From the UHGV virus genome UHGV-0172014: a stretch of DNA of 12,663 nucleotides; one strand, 5' to 3'. Source of the DNA: a virus. The notes under the pieces were generated by a model. That model was not told where the DNA came from. It worked only from the letters and a program-made list of their open reading frames with translations, and made no database searches. Both the position numbers and the translations under genes were made by a program. Positions 4,587 through 12,236 of this stretch are shown in pieces. Within the stretch, counting starts at the first letter, position 1. The number at the start of each line of letters is the position of its first letter.

Positions 4587-4606
4587 AGGTCGGTCATGAG
4601 CACTAA
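4427..4606 (+). CDS. Small ORF (59 aa) in an alternative frame, TTG start with AAGGAG SD; or the C-terminal part of a frameshifted gene
   Basis: Frame is open from 4400 to the TAA at 4604-4606; TTG at 4427 sits 8 nt after AAGGAG (4413-4418). Translation (…[58 protein letters not shown]) is compositionally protein-like. Not in the ORF track (non-ATG start). Confidence 0.35.
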
Positions 4607-5537
4607 ATTAACCGGCTATGTATGGGATGGTTGCGCTGCATCAGGCATGAAATTATCCAGCGTGGCAATTATGGCCCGCCTGGCTGATTTCAGTAATGAC
4701 GAAGGTGTGTGCTGGCCATCAATTGAAACTATTGCCCGTCAGATTGGCGCGGGGATGAGTACCGTCAGGACGGCTATCGCACGGCTGGAAGCAGAAGGCT
4801 GGTTAACGCGTAAGGCGCGTCGCCAGGGTAACCGCAATGCGTCGAATGTTTATCAGCTTAACGTTGCGAAGCTTCAGGCAGCGGCATTTTCTCAACTGTC
4901 AGATTCTGACCCGTCAAAATCTGACGCATCAAAATCTGACCCGTCAAAATTTGATGCGTCGAAATCTGGCAAAAAAGCGGGTTTTCACCCGTCAGAATCT
5001 GGCGGGGATCCGTCAGTAAAATCAAAACATGATCCGTCAGATAAAAAACCTTCTCGTCCGGACGCTTCGCAACCGGACACGCAGACGGATGAACAGGATT
5101 TTTTAACTCGCCATCCTGATGCGGTTGTATTCAGCCCTAAAAAGCGCCAGTGGGGAACGCAGGATGATTTGACCTGCGCACAGTGGCTCTGGAAAAAAAT
5201 CATCGCCCTGTACGAGCAAGCCGCCGAATGTGACGGCGAGGTGGTTCGTCCCAAAGAACCGAACTGGACAGCCTGGGCAAACGAAATTCGCCTGATGTGT
5301 GTGCAGGATGGTCGTACTCACAAACAAATCTGCGAGATGTACAGCCGCGTCAGCCGCGATCCGTTCTGGTGCCGTAACGTGCTCAGCCCGTCGAAGTTGC
5401 GGGAAAAATGGGATGAGCTTTCCCTGCGCTTATCACCGTCCGTCAGCACGTACACCGAAAAACGCGAAGACCCGTACTTCAAATCCAGTTACGACAACGT
5501 GGACTACAGCCAGATCCCGGCAGGATTCAGGGGGTGA
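4596..5537 (+). CDS. Replication initiator (O-like: N-terminal HTH DNA-binding domain, low-complexity linker, C-terminal domain)
   Basis: ATG at 4596 with GAGG SD; N-terminal winged-helix/HTH-like region (SVAIMARLADFSNDEGVCWPSIETIARQIGAGMSTVRTAIARLEAEGWL); a tandem repeat array inside the linker, as the lambda origin lies inside gene O; position after the cro/CII block. Confidence 0.65.
   Translation: MSTKLTGYVWDGCAASGMKLSSVAIMARLADFSNDEGVCWPSIETIARQIGAGMSTVRTAIARLEAEGWLTRKARRQGNRNASNVYQLNVAKLQAAAFSQLSDSDPSKSDASKSDPSKFDASKSGKKAGFHPSESGGDPSVKSKHDPSDKKPSRPDASQPDTQTDEQDFLTRHPDAVVFSPKKRQWGTQDDLTCAQWLWKKIIALYEQAAECDGEVVRPKEPNWTAWANEIRLMCVQDGRTHKQICEMYSRVSRDPFWCRNVLSPSKLREKWDELSLRLSPSVSTYTEKREDPYFKSSYDNVDYSQIPAGFRG
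4896..5050. repeat. Iteron-like direct repeat array (candidate replication origin) inside the initiator gene
   Basis: Five head-to-tail 15-bp units (CTGTCAGATTCTGAC, CCGTCAAAATCTGAC, GCATCAAAATCTGAC, CCGTCAAAATTTGAT, GCGTCGAAATCTGGC; 4896-4970), then three degenerate copies (CCGTCAGAATCTGGC 4989-5003, CCGTCAGTAAAATC about 5010-5023, CCGTCAGATAAAAAACC 5034-5050) with A-rich tracts (AAAAAAGC, ATAAAAAACC). Confidence 0.6.
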
Positions 5538-6028: not shown

Positions 6029-6681
6029 TGAGTAATAAATATTGCCAGGCGCTGGTGGAGCTGCGGAACAAACCAGCCCATGAACTGAAGGAAGTGGGCG
6101 ATCAGTGGCGCACGCCGGACAACATTTTCTGGGGAATTAACACCCTGTTTGGCCCGTTTGTTCTGGATCTGTTTACTGATGGTGATAACGCCAAATGTGC
6201 CGCTTATTACACTGCGGAAGACAACGCGCTGGCGCATGACTGGTCAGAACGTCTTGCGGAGCTTAAAGGTGCTGCCTTTGGTAATCCCCCGTACAGCCGC
6301 GCCAGTCAGCATGAGGGGCAATACATCACCGGCATGCGTTACATCATGAAACATGCCAGTGCTATGCGTGATAAAGGCGGGCGCTATGTTTTCCTGATCA
6401 AAGCTGCCACCAGCGAAGTTTGGTGGCCGGAAGATGCAGACCATATTGCTTTTATTCGCGGGCGTATTGGTTTTGAACTGCCAGCCTGGTTTATCCCGAA
6501 GGACGAGAAGCAGGTGCCGACAGGCGCTTTCTTCGCTGGTGCTATTGCTGTTTTCGACAAGACCTGGAAGGGACCGGCAATCAGCTACATCGGGCGCGAT
6601 GAACTTGAGGCATGTGGTGAGGCCTTTCTGGCGCAGGTTCGCCAGCAGGCGGAAAAACTGGTCAGGGAGATGGCGGCATGA
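6028..6681 (+). CDS. Phage DNA N-6-adenine methyltransferase (Dam-like)
   Basis: ATG at 6028 overlapping the upstream stop (TAATG), GTGGGGG SD; catalytic NPPY motif (AAFGNPPYSRAS); size and position typical of lambdoid phage Dam methyltransferases. Confidence 0.8.
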   Translation: MSNKYCQALVELRNKPAHELKEVGDQWRTPDNIFWGINTLFGPFVLDLFTDGDNAKCAAYYTAEDNALAHDWSERLAELKGAAFGNPPYSRASQHEGQYITGMRYIMKHASAMRDKGGRYVFLIKAATSEVWWPEDADHIAFIRGRIGFELPAWFIPKDEKQVPTGAFFAGAIAVFDKTWKGPAISYIGRDELEACGEAFLAQVRQQAEKLVREMAA

Positions 6682-7004
6682 CGACGTTAACTCAATGCCA
6701 GCAGCAGGTGCTGGATATGCTGATTTCTTACCAGAAAGAACGTGGCTTCCCGCCAACCAATCAGGAGGTGGCAACCATGCTGGGATACCGTTCAGTGAAT
6801 GCAGCGGTGGAGCATCTTCGCGCACTGGAGAAAAAAGGTGTCATCACGATAAAGCGTGGCGTGGCCCGGGGGATAACGCTTCATACCGCGGTGAAGGACG
6901 ACGACAGCGAGGCGGTCGGGATTATCCGCTCACTGCTTGCCGGTGAGGAAAACGCAAGGCTGCGTGCAACCCACTGGTTACATGAGAGAGGCCTGAAAGT
7001 ATGA
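6678..7004 (+). CDS. LexA N-terminal DNA-binding-domain-like protein (108 aa) lacking the S24 peptidase domain
   Basis: Clear similarity to the LexA winged-helix domain (ours QQQVLDMLISYQKERGFPPTNQEVATMLGYRSVNAAVEHLRALEKKGVITI versus LexA [52 protein letters not shown], recalled); no Ser/Lys catalytic domain; ATGA overlap with Dam. Confidence 0.8.
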   Translation: MTTLTQCQQQVLDMLISYQKERGFPPTNQEVATMLGYRSVNAAVEHLRALEKKGVITIKRGVARGITLHTAVKDDDSEAVGIIRSLLAGEENARLRATHWLHERGLKV

Positions 7005-7390
7005 AGCTGATCTTGCCTTTCCCGCCCAGCGTGAACACGTACTGGCGACACCCCAACAAAGGGGCGTTTGCTGGTAAGAGCCTGATAAGCGCGGCGGGGC
7101 GAAAATTCCAGAGCGCAGCGTGCGCAGCAATAGTTGAGCAGTTACGTCGTCTGCCGAAACCAACGTCGGCACCTGCTTCAGTGGAGATCGTGTTGTTTCC
7201 TCCGGATTACCGGATCCGCGATCTGGACAACTATAACAAGGCGCTGTTTGACGCCCTGACCCACGTGGGTGTGTGGGAAGACGACAGCCAGGTGAAAAGA
7301 ATGCTGGTGGAGTGGGGACCGGTTATCCCGGAAGGGAAGGTCGAGATCACTATCAGTAAGTACGAGAAACCGGCGGGTGCAGCCGCCTGA
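7001..7390 (+). CDS. rusA: Holliday junction resolvase RusA
   Basis: N-terminal MKLILPFPPSVNTYW and core RDLDNYNKALFDALTHVGVWEDDSQV match the RusA family; ATGA overlap with the upstream gene; typical NinR-region position. Confidence 0.9.
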   Translation: MKLILPFPPSVNTYWRHPNKGAFAGKSLISAAGRKFQSAACAAIVEQLRRLPKPTSAPASVEIVLFPPDYRIRDLDNYNKALFDALTHVGVWEDDSQVKRMLVEWGPVIPEGKVEITISKYEKPAGAAA

Positions 7391-7409
7391 TTAAGAGGAG
7401 AAACGAAGT

Positions 7410-8219
7410 ATGAATAATCTGATGGTCATTGATGGTATTGAAGTTCGTCGTGATGCTTATGGGCGTTACAGCCTGAACGATCTGCATCGCGCAGCAGTAG
7501 CATCTGGTGCAAATGCCAGAACCAAGGAGCCGGGAAAGTTTCTTTCCAGCCAACAAACTGTTGAACTTGTTCATGAATTGACCAACACCCAGAATTTGGG
7601 TGTTGACCCGGTGAGTGTGATTCATGGGGGAAATGAACGGGGAACTTATGTCTGCAAGGAACTGGTGTATGCCTATGCAATGTGGATCAGCCCGTCATTC
7701 CATCTGAAGGTGATCCGTACTTTCGACATGGTAACCAGCGCACCGGAAAAATTATCCGGACAGGCTGCTGACAAGATGCAGGCTGGTGTGATTCTGCTGG
7801 ACTTTATGCGTCGGGAGTTAAACCTGTCTAACTCATCTGTGCTTGGTGCCTGTCAGAAACTCCAGGAGGCTGTTGGCTTACCGAATCTGGCACCGCGCTA
7901 TGCCATTGATGCTCCTGCTGATGCACACGATGGCTCAAGTCGCCCGACACTGTCACTGAGTGCACTGCTGAAACAGTATGGTATACGCCTGACGGCTAAT
8001 CAGGCATATCACCAGATGGTGAAACTGGGGATCGTCGAGCAGCGCGAACGATACAGCCGTACCGCGATTAACAACATCAAAAAATTCTGGTCGCTGACAG
8101 CGAAAGGTTGCATGTTCGGCAAGAACATCACCAGTCCCGCAAATCCGCGCGAGACGCAGCCGCATTTCTTCGAATCCCGATTCCCTGAGCTGTTAAAGCT
8201 GCTCGATACCGTTCATTGA
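7410..8219 (+). CDS. KilA-N domain protein (possible antirepressor-type regulator)
   Basis: ATG at 7410 with AGAGGAGAA SD; N-terminal KilA-N/APSES-like signature (IDGIEVRRDAYGRYSLNDLHRAAVASG...KELVYAYAMWISPSFHLKVI). Confidence 0.75.
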   Translation: MNNLMVIDGIEVRRDAYGRYSLNDLHRAAVASGANARTKEPGKFLSSQQTVELVHELTNTQNLGVDPVSVIHGGNERGTYVCKELVYAYAMWISPSFHLKVIRTFDMVTSAPEKLSGQAADKMQAGVILLDFMRRELNLSNSSVLGACQKLQEAVGLPNLAPRYAIDAPADAHDGSSRPTLSLSALLKQYGIRLTANQAYHQMVKLGIVEQRERYSRTAINNIKKFWSLTAKGCMFGKNITSPANPRETQPHFFESRFPELLKLLDTVH

Positions 8220-8226
8220 GGTGACC

Positions 8227-9216
8227 GTGAGAGCACTACTGACCCCTGAAATTGCCCCGCGTATGGGGATCGTATTGTTCAGGCCAGGTTCAGAGCTGAT
8301 GCCCCTGTTTATGCAGGGGCGTGTCCTGCTGGAGCCTGAGCCGGAGCGTTATTCATCTTTCGCCAGTGGTGCCGTTCCGGCGGCATCACAACCGCTGGCG
8401 GATGATCCTGCCGTTCGGGCCGTGTTCCGCAATGAGGCAGTGATCCGTCGTGCTGGTGGCGTGGAATGTCTTGAAAGCTGGTTACTTCGTGAAAAAGGCT
8501 GTCAGTGGCCTCACTCCGACTGGCACAGCGAAAACATGACCACAACGCGCCATGCGCCGGGCGCAATCCGTCTGTGCTGGCACTGCGATAACCAGTTGCG
8601 TGACCAGTTCACGGAACGGCTGGAATCAATGGCAACGGATAACTGTGCCCGCTGGGTGTTATCTGTTGTGCGCCGTGATCTCGGTTTTGATGATAGTCAC
8701 GTTGTGACAATGCCGGAACTGTGCTGGTGGCTGGTTCGTAATGACCTGGCGGATGCCTTACCGGAAAGTGCAGCCCGTAAGGCACTGAGATTACCGAAGC
8801 CTGTTGTGCCGTCTGTTACCCGGGAAAGTGACCTTGTGCCTTCGGTTCCTGCCACCAGCATCATCCAGGATAAGGCGAAAAAGGTGCTGGCGCTGAAAGT
8901 GGATCCGGAGTCGCCGGAGTCTTTTATGTTACGCCCAAAACGTCGCCGCTGGGTTAATGAAAAGTACACGCGCTGGGTTAAGACACAGCCGTGTGCATGT
9001 TGTGGAAAGCCTGCTGATGATCCCCACCACCTGATAGGCCACGGTCAGGGGGGAATGGGTACAAAAGCGCATGACCTCTTTGTGTTGCCTTTGTGCAGAA
9101 AGCATCACGACGAACTGCATGCGGATACCGTGGCATTTGAAGAGAAGTATGGCTCTCAGCTGGAGCTGATATTTCGTTTTATCGATCGTGCGCTGGCAAC
9201 TGGCGTACTGGGCTGA
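8227..9216 (+). CDS. DUF968-like phage protein with a C-terminal Cys/His (HNH-like) cluster
   Basis: In-frame GTG at 8227 has a GAGG SD 5 nt upstream; the track start GTG 8221 overlaps that SD. C-terminal CACCGKPADDPHHLIGHGQGG...LPLCRKHHDELHAD; position between the KilA-N gene and Q matches DUF968 proteins of lambdoid prophages (family from memory). Confidence 0.65.
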   Translation: MRALLTPEIAPRMGIVLFRPGSELMPLFMQGRVLLEPEPERYSSFASGAVPAASQPLADDPAVRAVFRNEAVIRRAGGVECLESWLLREKGCQWPHSDWHSENMTTTRHAPGAIRLCWHCDNQLRDQFTERLESMATDNCARWVLSVVRRDLGFDDSHVVTMPELCWWLVRNDLADALPESAARKALRLPKPVVPSVTRESDLVPSVPATSIIQDKAKKVLALKVDPESPESFMLRPKRRRWVNEKYTRWVKTQPCACCGKPADDPHHLIGHGQGGMGTKAHDLFVLPLCRKHHDELHADTVAFEEKYGSQLELIFRFIDRALATGVLG

Positions 9217-9233
9217 TGTTGTGGAGAAAGTTG

Positions 9234-9575
9234 ATGCGTGACATGTATGAAGTTTTGGACCGCTGGGGAGCATGGGCTGCAGCAGATAACAGTAGTGTGG
9301 ACTGGCAGCCGATAGCAGCAGGCTTCAAGGGGCTTTTACCTCATGGTAAAAAAACACGTCTCCAGTGTGATGATGATGAAGGGATCATGATAGACGGTTG
9401 TGTCGCACGGTTACGTAAATATAAACAAGAAGAATATGAGCTAATAATTGCTCACTTTGTTATTGGTATTTCATTACGCGCCATTGCGAAGAAGCGTAAG
9501 TGTTCTGATGGGACAATTAGAAAAGATATGCAAACAGCATTAGGTTTTGTTAGTGGTGTGCTATCAATGCTATGA
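9234..9575 (+). CDS. Q: Late-gene antitermination protein Q (short QuuD-like type)
   Basis: ATG at 9234 with GGAG SD (7-nt spacer); alternative in-frame ATG at 9216 overlaps the upstream stop. MRDMYEVLDRWGAWAA...AAGFKGLLP...CSDGTIRK resembles the small Q antiterminators of DLP12-type prophages as I recall them; position just before the lysis region. Confidence 0.7.
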   Translation: MRDMYEVLDRWGAWAAADNSSVDWQPIAAGFKGLLPHGKKTRLQCDDDEGIMIDGCVARLRKYKQEEYELIIAHFVIGISLRAIAKKRKCSDGTIRKDMQTALGFVSGVLSML

Positions 9576-9580
9576 TTATA

Positions 9581-9598
9581 AGAGGCCTTAGGGCCTCT
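9581..9598. terminator. Intergenic hairpin between convergent Q and the cassette (candidate bidirectional terminator)
   Basis: AGAGGCC-TTAG-GGCCTCT stem-loop 5 nt after the Q stop and 3 nt before the minus-strand gene stop; flanking runs are A/T-rich but not clean U tracts in either direction. Confidence 0.45.
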
Positions 9599-9601
9599 TT
9601 A

Positions 9602-10345
9602 CTAAATTACTTGGATGATGAAAGAAACAATCAATGTTGCTAAACCACCAATAGCAGATACTTTAAATTCCGAACCACGAAATACCATCTTCCCATTGAC
9701 CTTTATATTATTTGCAATGAATGGTGATATTCCAACGGCCGCACTCATGAAATATAAAGAAGAAATCATTTTCTTTTGAAACTCATTCAAGTCTGGCATT
9801 AACAGTGTAATTGATAAAAAAATACAAAAACTTAAAAATCCAATAATAGCAGTGACAATTAATTTCCAATTCATTGGGGTACCTATAGTAAATCCATCGA
9901 TTGGCAATTTTCGAGACTCAAATTCCGCAATAATAGCGGTGTAAATATCTTTTGATGAGTACTTTTTAATGATTCTTTGGATGTTTGATAGACCATCTTT
10001 GCTATACAATACAATATTGTCTGGATCAATTTTTAGGTGTTTAATGTTTGCCACCATCATGTCGTAGTATTCTAAATAAGTTTCCAGAACTGCTCGACAG
10101 TCTCCAGCTAACGAAATGGCGAATGTCTTATTGTCATCCAGTTTACATAAATCTACTTTTTGAACTAACTTAACAGCGGTATTAAAATATTTTGAAGCAT
10201 GCTGCTGAACTTCATGTAGGTCAGCAAGGTTTGATATACCGCCATTACGCACGTATGGCTGAATACCACGTAAAAATCTTTCCTTTGCAGAAGTCAGCTC
10301 CGACGTTACTTCGTCGGGGCTGATCTGAAACACATCATTATTCAT
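9602..10345 (-). CDS. Hypothetical membrane-anchored protein (247 aa): soluble N-terminal domain plus 2-3 C-terminal TM helices
   Basis: ATG at 10343-10345 overlapping the upstream stop (ATGA coupling). Hydrophobic segments WKLIVTAIIGFLSFCIFLSITLL, ISSLYFMSAAVGISPFIANNI and VSAIGGLATLIVSFIIQVI; very AT-rich; no family recognised. Confidence 0.7.
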   Translation of the reverse strand: MNNDVFQISPDEVTSELTSAKERFLRGIQPYVRNGGISNLADLHEVQQHASKYFNTAVKLVQKVDLCKLDDNKTFAISLAGDCRAVLETYLEYYDMMVANIKHLKIDPDNIVLYSKDGLSNIQRIIKKYSSKDIYTAIIAEFESRKLPIDGFTIGTPMNWKLIVTAIIGFLSFCIFLSITLLMPDLNEFQKKMISSLYFMSAAVGISPFIANNIKVNGKMVFRGSEFKVSAIGGLATLIVSFIIQVI

Positions 10346-10605
10346 TTTTGTTTTGGTGCCAGCATTCTTAATGCAGTGTTAAGATCAGAGTTGTCCACAC
10401 TTTCAGTGATTAAGAATTGGGTATTGGGAACATGACGGCTGATAATGCCTTGGAGCATGCTACGACTTATAACTTTACCACTTTGAAGCGCGGAGTTAAT
10501 GTCATTTTGTATCAAAGTGATTTCACGCTCGGTACAGGGGAAACCCCACCGAGTAACATTTGCATATTCACCAATTTTTTTCTTAAATTCTAGGTAGTTA
10601 CTCAT
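10342..10605 (-). CDS. Hypothetical small soluble protein (87 aa), first gene of the two-gene cassette
   Basis: ATG at 10603-10605 with AAGGAG SD (7-nt spacer); slightly basic, no TM segment; translationally coupled to the downstream membrane protein; AT-rich. Confidence 0.65.
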   Translation of the reverse strand: MSNYLEFKKKIGEYANVTRWGFPCTEREITLIQNDINSALQSGKVISRSMLQGIISRHVPNTQFLITESVDNSDLNTALRMLAPKQK

Positions 10606-10629
10606 TGCAGTTCTCCTTGTTTGTAACCA

Positions 10630-10645
10630 CGTTAATCATATCAAA
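10630..10645 (-). promoter_or_regulatory. Candidate extended -10 promoter element for the cassette (TGaTATGAT on the minus strand)
   Basis: Reverse complement of 10632-10643 reads TTGATATGATTA, giving TATGAT with an upstream TG, about 25-30 nt before the SD of the 87-aa gene; the -35 is AT-rich and not well defined. Confidence 0.3.
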
Positions 10646-10723
10646 AAGCAAAATAATAAAAAACTAACGCGTACGCAAAAAGTATTGTATCGTGTTAAGA
10701 GTGGTTACTTCGCCACGCAGCTT

Positions 10724-10750
10724 AAACCCGCCGATGAGCGGGTTTTGTCG
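10724..10750 (+). terminator. Stem-loop upstream of the lysis genes (possible tR'-like late terminator/attenuator)
   Basis: AAACCCGC-CGATGA-GCGGGTTT (8-bp stem) followed by TGTCGTCTC; the U tract is weak. Lies about 150 nt upstream of the holin start, where lambdoid phages place the pR'/tR' unit. Confidence 0.35.
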
Positions 10751-10896
10751 TCTCTGGCCCGGCTGTTAGTTGGGCTTGGCCTATCCCGCAGTTATCCATT
10801 TGCTCGGCTTCTTTGACGTTTCCGCTTCTGATTTGCGGTTCCTGATATTCCCTCAATTTGCACCTGCTGTATCAGCAAGGTGAGAGATAACTATAA

Positions 10897-11223
10897 ATGC
10901 CTCATAACCCAAATACCTGGCTGGAGTTGCTCCAGAGCTGGTGGCGTGGAGACACCCCGCTGGGCGCAGTGATTATGTCGATCGTTATGGCTGGTTTGCG
11001 CATCGCCTATTTTGGCGGTGGTGGTGGCTGGAAGCGAAAAACGCTCGAGATTTTGCTATGTGGCGCTCTGACGCTGACCTTTGCATCCGCTCTTGAGTAT
11101 GTCGGATGGCCTAAATCGCTTTCTGTTGCCATTGGTGGTGGCGTGGGGCTGATCGGTGTCGATGCTATTCGTGGGGCTGCAATGCGAGTAATCGGTAACA
11201 AATTTGGTAGCTCGAAGGAGTAA
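10897..11223 (+). CDS. S: Holin (lambda S-like class I)
   Basis: 108 aa with three hydrophobic segments and a charged C-terminus; pattern (GAVIMSIVMAGLRIAYFGGGG...IGGGVGLIGVDAIRG) parallels lambda S; immediately upstream of the endolysin. Confidence 0.8.
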   Translation: MPHNPNTWLELLQSWWRGDTPLGAVIMSIVMAGLRIAYFGGGGGWKRKTLEILLCGALTLTFASALEYVGWPKSLSVAIGGGVGLIGVDAIRGAAMRVIGNKFGSSKE

Positions 11224-11226
11224 TTT

Positions 11227-11703
11227 ATGCAGGCACTAAATTCCCAGCGTAAAGCTTTCCTGGATATGGTGGCATGGTCAGAAGGAACGGATAACGGGCG
11301 ACAGCCGACACGTAACCACGGTTATGATGTTATTGTTGGTGGCGAACTGTTCACTGATTACTCCGATCACCCTCGCAAACTTGTCACGCTAAACCCCAAA
11401 CTCAAATCAACAGCTGCCGGACGTTACCAGCTTCTTTCACGCTGGTGGGATGCTTACCGTAAACAGCTTGGCCTGAAAGATTTTTCTCCAGAAAGCCAGG
11501 ACGCTGTAGCTCTGCAGCAGATTAAAGAGCGTGGTGCTTTACCGATGATTGACCGCGGCAGTATTCGTCAGGCAATCGACCGTTGCAGCAATATCTGGGC
11601 GTCGTTACCTGGTGCAGGTTACGGTCAGTATGAACATAAAATCGGTGACCTGATTGCCCGATTTAAAAAAGCTGGTGGGGTAGTAAATGAAGCTGAGATA
11701 TAA
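11227..11703 (+). CDS. R: Endolysin, lambda R-type lytic transglycosylase
   Basis: Near-identical over most of its length to lambda R as I recall it (NQRKAFLDM.AWSEGTDNGRQ.TRNHGYDVIVGGELFTDYSDHPRKLVTLNPKLKST.AGRYQLLSRWWDAYRKQLGLKDFSP.SQDAVALQQIKERGALPMIDRG); AAGGAG SD. Confidence 0.95.
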   Translation: MQALNSQRKAFLDMVAWSEGTDNGRQPTRNHGYDVIVGGELFTDYSDHPRKLVTLNPKLKSTAAGRYQLLSRWWDAYRKQLGLKDFSPESQDAVALQQIKERGALPMIDRGSIRQAIDRCSNIWASLPGAGYGQYEHKIGDLIARFKKAGGVVNEAEI

Positions 11704-12079
11704 GCTGGTTATTGTTGCCTTCGTTGTTAGCGTCATTGGTTCCTTCATCTGGTCTGCTGGGCATTACTACAGCAAATATCAGCACGAAAAGGAGCGTGCT
11801 GATGAGGCTGTACGAAATGCTGAATCAGCAACTGCCATTACCCGTAACGTTCTTCAATCACTGCAAATCATCAATACAGTTATAGAGGCTAACCAGCATG
11901 CAAAACAGCAGATCGCACTGGAGTCACAGAGAACCCAGGAAGATATCAAAGTGGCTGTTGCGGATGATGATTGTGCTTCACGTCATGTGCCTGCTGCCGC
12001 TGCTGACCGGTTGCGGAAGTACGCGAACAGTTTACGTACCGATTCCGGCGGTACCGTTGCCAGCAAGCCTGACTACTGA
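11687..12079 (+). CDS. Rz: Rz-like inner-membrane spanin (i-spanin)
   Basis: Overlaps the end of R by 17 nt; N-terminal TM helix (LVIVAFVVSVIGSFIW) followed by a charged, coiled-coil-like periplasmic domain; position after R. Confidence 0.8.
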   Translation: MKLRYKLVIVAFVVSVIGSFIWSAGHYYSKYQHEKERADEAVRNAESATAITRNVLQSLQIINTVIEANQHAKQQIALESQRTQEDIKVAVADDDCASRHVPAAAADRLRKYANSLRTDSGGTVASKPDY

Positions 12080-12236
12080 AACTCCCCAGCCAGTCATTCC
12101 CGAGCCGCTGACCTATGGGGCCAGTCTGGATCTGAATGTGAGCCTGCTTTCGGCGTTGGGACAATGCAATATTGACAAAGCGGGGATTCGAAGTATCGAT
12201 ATGCGCCGTAACGCTTTGCTGGCAGCAGGCAAATAG
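11964..12236 (+). CDS. Rz1: Rz1-like outer-membrane lipoprotein spanin (o-spanin), +1 frame, overlapping the Rz 3' end
   Basis: Lipobox LLTGC (MMIVLHVMCLLPLLTGCGS...) followed by a Pro-rich segment (VYVPIPAVPLPASLTTETPQPVIPEP); start assigned to the ATG at 11964 (track ORF begins at 11898); extends 157 nt beyond the Rz stop. Confidence 0.6.
   Translation: MMIVLHVMCLLPLLTGCGSTRTVYVPIPAVPLPASLTTETPQPVIPEPLTYGASLDLNVSLLSALGQCNIDKAGIRSIDMRRNALLAAGK

Follow-up and report, generated by a model that had tools for sequence, protein, structure and literature searches.

We analysed a two-gene cassette carried by the virus genome UHGV-0172014, within a stretch of 12,663 nucleotides hereafter called the window. 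The cassette lies on the minus strand downstream of the Q gene and encodes a small protein of 87 amino acids (aa) and a membrane protein of 247 aa. An initial annotation, based on the letters of the window, had proposed it as a novel defence or exclusion module inserted between Q and the holin gene. The gene structure of the cassette, the coupling of its genes, the purifying selection acting on them, the topology of the larger product, the synteny of the partner genes, the mobility of the module and its occupancy of defence hotspots are supported computationally. The genes and signals at the locus are the following:

9216-9575, plus strand: Q gene (Pfam Phage_antitermQ, 2.6e-45)
9580-9599, no strand assigned: hairpin AAGAGGCC-TTAG-GGCCTCTT, with a stem of 8 bp and a 4-nt loop
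9602-10345, minus strand: gene for the 247-aa protein (open reading frame list and sequence)
10342-10605, minus strand: gene for the 87-aa protein (open reading frame list and sequence)
10613-10618, minus strand: Shine-Dalgarno sequence AAGGAG, 7 nt 5' of the ATG at 10605-10603, kept in the 94% E. coli variants
10635-10643, minus strand: extended -10-like sequence TGaTATGAT, a consensus match in cassette-specific DNA
10897-11223, plus strand: holin gene, lambda-type (Phage_holin_3_1, 3.2e-25)

Congruently with the initial annotation, the open reading frame (ORF) list and the sequence place two minus-strand genes between Q and the holin gene, with the stop of the 87-aa gene and the start of the 247-aa gene overlapping as ATGA (10342-10345). 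The low G+C content reported for the cassette was also reproduced in a windowed check, which gave 0.30-0.43 for the cassette vs 0.50-0.59 for its flanks; the inserted DNA measures 1082 bp and has an overall G+C content of 0.36. The ratio of nonsynonymous to synonymous substitution rates (dN/dS) was 0.24 for the 247-aa gene and 0.18-0.45 for the 87-aa gene, which shows that purifying selection acts on both and, therefore, that both ORFs are real genes.

Products and candidate expression signals of the cassette

The AlphaFold2 (AF2) model of the 247-aa protein shows an all-alpha N-terminal domain of ~150 residues (about 10-155), with a predicted local distance difference test score (pLDDT) of 80-90, followed by helices at 160-182, 188-210 and 232-246. 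Combined with hydropathy, the model outlined three transmembrane (TM) segments, TM1 (160-182), TM2 (192-212) and TM3 (230-247), of which TM1 and TM3 are strongly hydrophobic and TM2 is weaker. This architecture agrees with the soluble N-terminal region of ~155 aa and the two or three C-terminal TM helices described earlier. The distribution of charges fits an N-terminus inside and a C-terminus outside the cell, and the N-terminal domain is predicted to be cytoplasmic. We did not detect an enzymatic motif in the 247-aa protein, nor a signal peptide, a lipobox or an enzyme domain in either product. The 247-aa protein was also considered as a holin or antiholin, a candidate that was rejected: it has no holin Pfam match, its gene is antisense to the holin gene at 10897, and its family is found outside phages as well.

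The 87-aa protein is predicted to adopt a small soluble alpha/beta fold (AF2 pLDDT 75.7) and carries 11 lysine and arginine residues vs eight aspartate and glutamate residues, so that its description as small, soluble and slightly basic was confirmed. Its C-terminal motif, SVDNSDLNTAL, is invariant. A weak sequence match to lambda Cro (E 0.5) was dropped, since the fold search did not support it. We propose the 247-aa protein as the effector of the cassette and the 87-aa protein as its regulator or sensor.

Neither protein had been recognised as a member of a named family, and this held in every search: both lacked a Pfam or NCBIfam match, and the PDB sequence and profile searches as well as the BFVD fold search came back empty for the cassette proteins. 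The 247-aa protein matches PHROG 5814 (4.4e-15) and the 87-aa protein matches PHROG 31842 (1.8e-7), both annotated as "unknown function", so membership of these groups adds no functional information. No match to the 87-aa protein was obtained among the 5027 models of PADLOC-DB v2.0.0.

As for the expression signals, the AAGGAG ahead of the 87-aa start bears out the claim that the cassette has a Shine-Dalgarno sequence of its own. The candidate extended -10 is likewise present, and both the 94% E. coli variant (TGATACTAT) and a Klebsiella variant with proteins ~50-57% identical (TGTTATAGT) have a TGnTAnnnT pattern in the corresponding place, but the site has no recognisable -35 and was not listed by the consensus promoter scan. 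At the other end of the cassette, the hairpin at 9580-9599 separates the convergent stops of Q (9573-9575) and of the 247-aa gene (9602-9604). It folds strongly on both strands, with a free energy (dG) of -14.0 kcal/mol on the plus and -13.4 kcal/mol on the minus strand (z -3.5 and -3.6; 0 of 200 shuffles as stable), but lacks a strong U tract and was not listed by the terminator scan. It is probably a bidirectional insulator or terminator.

The interval downstream of Q and its occupants

To place the cassette among related prophages, 80 viral contigs with related Q genes were surveyed together with four annotated loci, which yielded 82 loci with an identifiable Q. An element of ~100 nt, identical or nearly identical to positions 10658-10760 of the window, lies downstream of Q in 80 of the 82, and inserts of at least 14 mutually unrelated classes (621-2987 bp, G+C 0.31-0.39) occur in the interval that separates it from the Q stop. 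The genes of all classes lie antisense to Q, with the exception of one gene. In the multiple alignment of the right-hand junction, the homology common to all 14 classes ends abruptly after ...GCGTACGCGTTAG (window ~10664), the last shared letters being TTTTTGCGTACGCGTTAG. Two further features of the window follow from this comparison:

9576-10663, no strand assigned: exchangeable slot content, from the Q stop to the conserved right-hand element, at which the homology among all classes ends abruptly
~10664-10760, plus strand: conserved right-hand element, which travels with the Q family and contains a palindrome and a hairpin with a T run

The initial annotation had thus placed the insertion correctly on the side of the Q stop, but "between Q and the holin" is too wide as a general description, since the right boundary is the conserved element. 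This element is kept whatever adjoins it, be it an SfII-type holin gene, the essD lysis genes or a methylase-tRNA-stx2 arrangement. It includes the palindrome GCGTACGC at 10669-10676 and, on the late strand, a terminator-like hairpin with a T run at ~10721-10748. A consensus scan and inspection revealed no convincing -35 and -10 promoter hexamers in it, and neither Rfam families nor tRNAs were found in the region of the cassette and the element. We consider that it probably represents the late promoter/Q-utilisation (qut)/tR' leader.

The cassette of the window constitutes one of the slot classes. It occupies 10 of the 82 loci and, among 5426 complete E. coli genomes, is present in 21, always directly 3' of Q and with SfII-like or essD-like lysis genes downstream. 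It is therefore not a conserved core element of these prophages, and the view of it as horizontally acquired cargo in a cargo slot is supported by the variety of cassettes (at least 14) that related prophages carry in its place. Shigella phage SfII and an Stx2a phage, for instance, have other two-gene cassettes in the same slot.

Several of the alternative occupants could be recognised. Class 1, found in an identical slot in E. coli TUM1226, consists of WP_000355468.1 and WP_000150292.1, to which RefSeq gives the names "nucleoid-associated anti-phage protein" and "anti-phage protein"; the pair is present in 106 of the 5426 E. coli genomes. WP_000355468.1 is included in DefensePredictor Table S8, which lists the domains of 42 experimentally validated units, and the YejK domain is named in the text of that study among the newly validated defence domains (DeWeirdt et al., PMC13092281). 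Because class 1 includes this validated protein, the slot holds at least one proven defence system. Both class 1 and class 11 combine an NA37 (YejK-type) protein with a protein of ~405 aa. Class 2, which corresponds to SfII_49/50 of phage SfII, matches the PADLOC models PDC-M53A and PDC-M53B (2.1e-32 and 2.8e-54), class 9 pairs an NsnA/PD-T4-2_A-like DUF262 protein with a cytosine methyltransferase, and class 8 encodes a protein of the metallo-beta-lactamase (MBL) fold that is weakly LmuA-like. Eight of the 14 classes had no match, and no obvious virulence or metabolic gene was found among the recognisable occupants. A defence hotspot downstream of Q is not described in the literature we searched, the coverage of which was incomplete.

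The remaining classes are diverse. Class 4 (L014:5404-6285) is a single protein of 294 aa, whose N-terminal TM segment leads into a long coiled region and then, at the C-terminus, into an Ion_trans_2 potassium-channel pore (2.4e-5), and it matches no defence model. Classes 0, 2, 5, 7 and 13 (loci L015, L003, L062, L004 and L039, respectively) are unrelated to each other and share a layout in which a soluble protein of 270-345 aa is followed by a multi-TM protein of 160-194 aa. Judging by analogy, these classes may be RexAB-like or Sucellos-like, as their order and sizes recall rexA-rexB; among them, only class 2 obtained a PADLOC candidate match. Classes 6 (L048:4752-6032; 427 aa), 10 (L063:5374-5934; 187 aa) and 12 (L060:5392-7116; 249, 114 and 205 aa) have neither Pfam nor PADLOC matches. 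The class 7 locus belongs to the Stx2-converting phage Stx2a_1447, in which an antisense pair (1390-2953; a 179-aa TM protein and a 343-aa protein) separates Q from the conserved element, a methylase gene, tRNAs and stx2AB. Exchanges of cargo in this locus fall between Q and the site, upstream of stx2AB, at which it presumably acts.

Occurrence of the module outside this prophage

An exhaustive profile search retrieved 79 representatives of the 247-aa family, most of them ~250 aa long, 20-25% identical and of the same architecture. The conserved residues are K21, F54-N55, C83, Q123-R124 and L147-P148..G151-F152. Close homologues of the cassette are confined to Enterobacteriaceae, and the family as a whole is sparse and centred on the gammaproteobacteria; its named members come from Vibrio, Shewanella, Marinomonas, Acinetobacter, Aeromonas, Pseudomonas, Salinivibrio, Marinobacter, Noviherbaspirillum and Mariprofundaceae, and all of them are annotated as "hypothetical". 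In the 12 contexts examined, without exception, one or two genes of ~85 aa lie directly upstream of the large gene and abut or overlap it. Their products are homologous to the 87-aa protein, are paralogs of each other where there are two, and share the C-terminal motif G-[VAI]-D-N-S-D-L...L. Neighbouring ORFs, used as a control, did not match. No fusion of the partner to the membrane protein was found among the 79 representatives.

The module was located in several kinds of exchangeable DNA. In a Klebsiella prophage it fills the same slot downstream of Q. A distant version (85 aa and 233 aa; proteins 22% and 35% identical) lies antisense between G and FI, two tail genes of a P2-like phage, a position also occupied by the module in a P2-like prophage of E. 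coli TOK-001. The G-FI position is the Z/fun locus of P2, which has been named a defence locus (PMC13586616) and is cited as one of two variable anti-phage loci. In Vibrio parahaemolyticus (L094), the pair (genes 6744-7807) forms a single integron cassette within a same-strand array, delimited by attC-like repeats at 6549-6670 and from 7804, and an integrase was not seen in this locus. The V. kyushuensis module (L090) adjoins a tyrosine recombinase and acetyltransferase cassettes. Lastly, the module forms chromosomal islets of two or three genes in Aeromonas, Acinetobacter, Marinomonas, Pseudomonas and Mariprofundaceae, with examples between housekeeping genes.

Some members of the family are longer. 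One of them (L099:5474-7278), of 425 aa, has a C-terminal extension that is probably periplasmic and is accompanied by two partner paralogs; it resides in an accessory island in which genes for Mrr_cat nuclease, HipA, DUF433 and GMT-wHTH proteins adjoin. Other long members carry a C-terminal DUF3298 or alpha/beta-hydrolase domain, and Pfam detected no domain in most of the C-terminally extended members.

A machine-learning survey published in 2026 also covers the larger protein. DefensePredictor Table S10, built on 3000 E. coli and Shigella genomes, contains 1041 uncharacterised clusters predicted as defensive at a log-odds cut-off of 4. WP_053886465.1, encoded at the identical E. coli E1 locus, gives its name (cluster_id) to one of them, and WP_126677159.1, the protein of the corresponding row, falls in the same 90% cluster as the protein of the window. 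This row reports a mean log-odds of 7.88 and a predicted_defensive value of TRUE (PMC13092281). The cluster is labelled there "Predicted novel defense gene" and has no HHblits or Foldseek match to known defence proteins. A search of the main texts of the papers for the protein accessions returned nothing.

Elsewhere in the window, a 313-aa gene (4596-5537) for a replication-type protein with a helix-turn-helix (HTH) contains a 15/30-nt tandem repeat of 4.3 copies at 4905-4968, which encodes a low-complexity stretch of the DPSKSDASKS type. RefSeq classes the Rz-like gene of the identical locus in E. coli E1 as a pseudogene that is incomplete ("missing C-terminus"; DUF2570), and in the window it is an intact ORF of 130 aa (11687-12079) with an embedded Rz1-like ORF at 11898-12236. 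Positions 1234-1553 correspond to a hypothetical gene that RefSeq describes as frameshifted in the identical locus; overlapping ORFs of 75-148 aa lie there, none of them clearly intact.

Interpretation and comparison with known systems

On balance, we lean towards seeing in the cassette a self-contained anti-phage module of two genes that moves horizontally, is expressed in the lysogen and protects the host against other phages. This reading is favoured because the cassette shares its slot with a validated system, because the family occupies three further kinds of variable locus, and because of the strict pairing of the two genes, the machine-learning score and the absence of an enzymatic motif in the membrane protein. 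Membrane proteins are the usual suicide effectors of such systems (PMC9122126). In the mechanism that we envisage, the extended -10 promoter would drive the cassette antisense to the late operon and insulated from it, and the ATGA coupling would lead to joint production of the soluble 87-aa and the inner-membrane 247-aa proteins. The conserved acidic C-terminal helix of the 87-aa protein (VDNSDL) could then bind the cytoplasmic helical domain of the 247-aa protein, which would thereby be held inactive or be informed of an infection. Infection might alter the state of the partner through its loss, its titration or the binding of a phage component. Finally, the three-helix membrane part would oligomerise or open, leading either to the collapse of membrane integrity or potential, as in abortive infection, or to a block of genome entry, as in exclusion.

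Several observations weigh against this reading. The putative promoter at 10635-10643 is a consensus match only, and the weak hydrophobicity of TM2 makes the topology of the 247-aa protein uncertain. Across the same 5027 PADLOC models, this protein obtained only a fragmentary and meaningless match to DndH (E 0.007, over 56 residues of a 1686-position model), and neither cassette protein resembles any characterised defence protein in fold or sequence. None of the accessions of the two proteins or their variants turned up in the accessible portions of DefensePredictor Tables S5-S8, which list tested and validated units, and the 247-aa protein was encountered solely in the prediction table. The validation rate of that study was 45% of the cloned units (PMC13092281). 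The features used by DefensePredictor are not independent of mobile-element context, and hotspots and integron arrays also carry toxin-antitoxin, virulence and partition cargo (PMC9122126). As to the description of the cassette as a novel defence or exclusion module, defence gained contextual support, but "novel" has to be tempered because the large protein is already in a published prediction list.

The main rival to the anti-phage reading is an addiction module resembling a toxin-antitoxin system, in which the 247-aa membrane protein would act as a toxin, with the 87-aa protein as a labile antidote to it, and which would mainly stabilise its carrier element with no direct role against phages. 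We regard it as unlikely. A small gene upstream of, and translationally coupled to, a larger one is the arrangement that would be expected of such a pair, but no toxin or antitoxin domain was found in the cassette proteins with Pfam or NCBIfam, and a 247-aa membrane toxin with a conserved cytoplasmic domain of 155 residues would be atypical for type II systems, as would the duplicated partner genes. The occurrence of the module as a single integron cassette fits addiction as well, toxin-antitoxin cassettes being known to stabilise sedentary integrons (bioRxiv 10.1101/2024.07.02.601686), and so do its patchy, mobile distribution and the presence of HigB/HTH and HipA/DUF433 modules nearby in two of its contexts. 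Addiction is nevertheless compatible with defence, given that many toxin-antitoxin-like modules are abortive-infection systems.

Somewhat less likely still is a lysogenic-conversion function unrelated to phages, such as stress tolerance, a change in the envelope or immunity to a bacteriocin or contact-dependent toxin. The cassette has the traits of a moron (AT-rich, with its own promoter-like element and antisense to the late genes), its larger product is predicted to be located in the membrane, and in some family members the C-terminus is extended by a part that is probably periplasmic, such as DUF3298 or an alpha/beta hydrolase, but the cassette proteins of the window have no signal peptide, lipobox or enzyme domain that would point to such a role. 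Hotspots do hold virulence and fitness cargo too (PMC9122126); in this slot, however, the recognisable alternative occupants are of the defence type and none is obviously a virulence or metabolic gene, and DefensePredictor scores the 247-aa protein as defensive.

A role in the prophage life cycle or in counter-defence (lysis timing or holin modulation, control of Q or the late promoter by antisense or divergent transcription, or inhibition of host defences) is very improbable because, although the cassette adjoins Q, the probable late leader and the holin gene and its promoter-like element lies within ~30-60 bp of the conserved element (which probably holds the late promoter), the module also occurs without surrounding phage genes in integron cassettes and chromosomal islets, sits at an unrelated position in P2-like phages and is missing from most related prophages, and its larger protein, with no holin Pfam match, far exceeds holins and antiholins in size.

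A broader proposal builds on the anti-phage reading, and we offer it tentatively, giving it slightly less than an even chance. According to it, the pair would be the founding member of an anti-phage family whose systems are anchored in the membrane and made of two components: an ~85-aa partner, in some cases duplicated, with a C-terminal G-[VAI]-D-N-S-D-L helix, and a ~250-aa protein with three TM helices and a novel helical domain on the cytoplasmic side. The trigger and effector mechanism would differ from those of RexAB and of the catalogued systems, and the family would be distributed across Q-slot prophages, the Z/fun locus, Vibrio integrons and islets. The interval from Q to its cognate late leader, in SfV/SfII-like and lambdoid prophages and in some Stx2 prophages, would moreover be an undescribed, sharply bounded defence hotspot in which at least eight of the 14 classes are uncharacterised systems. 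If protective, the cassette would be a compact system of ~1 kb without recognisable domains, whose membrane effector, with its unfamiliar cytoplasmic domain, would be under the control of a tiny partner, and the presence of the family in four kinds of exchangeable locus provides a ready comparative framework. The slot itself has conserved flanks that fix its limits to a few bases, and it is found in serotype-converting phages of Shigella as well as in some Stx2 phages. As it already includes one validated system, it would lend itself to a systematic search for others, of the kind carried out on the P2 and P4 hotspots. Since Q and the element on which it probably acts are separated by the cargo, replacing the latter could also influence the expression of the late genes, including that of Stx.

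Among the known systems, RexAB of lambda would be the best functional analogy. It is also a prophage module of two genes, for a soluble and an inner-membrane protein, located outside the late operon. The likeness does not extend to homology, as hhalign gave a probability of 0.1-0.2% between RexA or RexB and either family profile, and the sizes are inverted: the soluble protein has 87 aa in the cassette vs 279 in RexA, and the membrane protein 247 aa vs 144 in RexB. RexB has four TM helices. The genomic positions differ as well, RexAB lying in the immunity region and the cassette downstream of Q. RexAB is expressed in lysogens and aborts infection by membrane depolarisation (bioRxiv 10.1101/2024.07.02.601686).

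Sucellos (SclA/SclB), from an integron cassette of Vibrio cholerae, likewise consists of two genes, for a soluble and a membrane protein, under their own promoter, which in our cassette is a candidate one. Its membrane protein is pore-forming, both genes are required, and it is found in Vibrio sedentary integrons and enterobacterial prophages (bioRxiv 10.1101/2024.07.02.601686). Sucellos is reported to be structurally RexAB-like and the cassette is not, which sets the two apart by description.

The remaining comparisons concern position. A distant member of the cassette's family sits at the P2 Z/fun cargo site; the gene that P2 itself carries there is presumably a different protein from that family. 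PDC-M53 (SfII 49/50) shares the slot downstream of Q and the form of a two-gene antisense cassette for a soluble and a multi-TM protein, but its proteins belong to other families, show no cross-match to ours, and PDC-M53 is itself only a candidate system. The YejK/NA37 pair occupies exactly the same slot of related prophages as an AT-rich, antisense pair of genes; it encodes unrelated proteins, namely a zinc-ribbon and NA37 protein of 391 aa and a partner of 404 aa, and, unlike the cassette, it has been validated experimentally.

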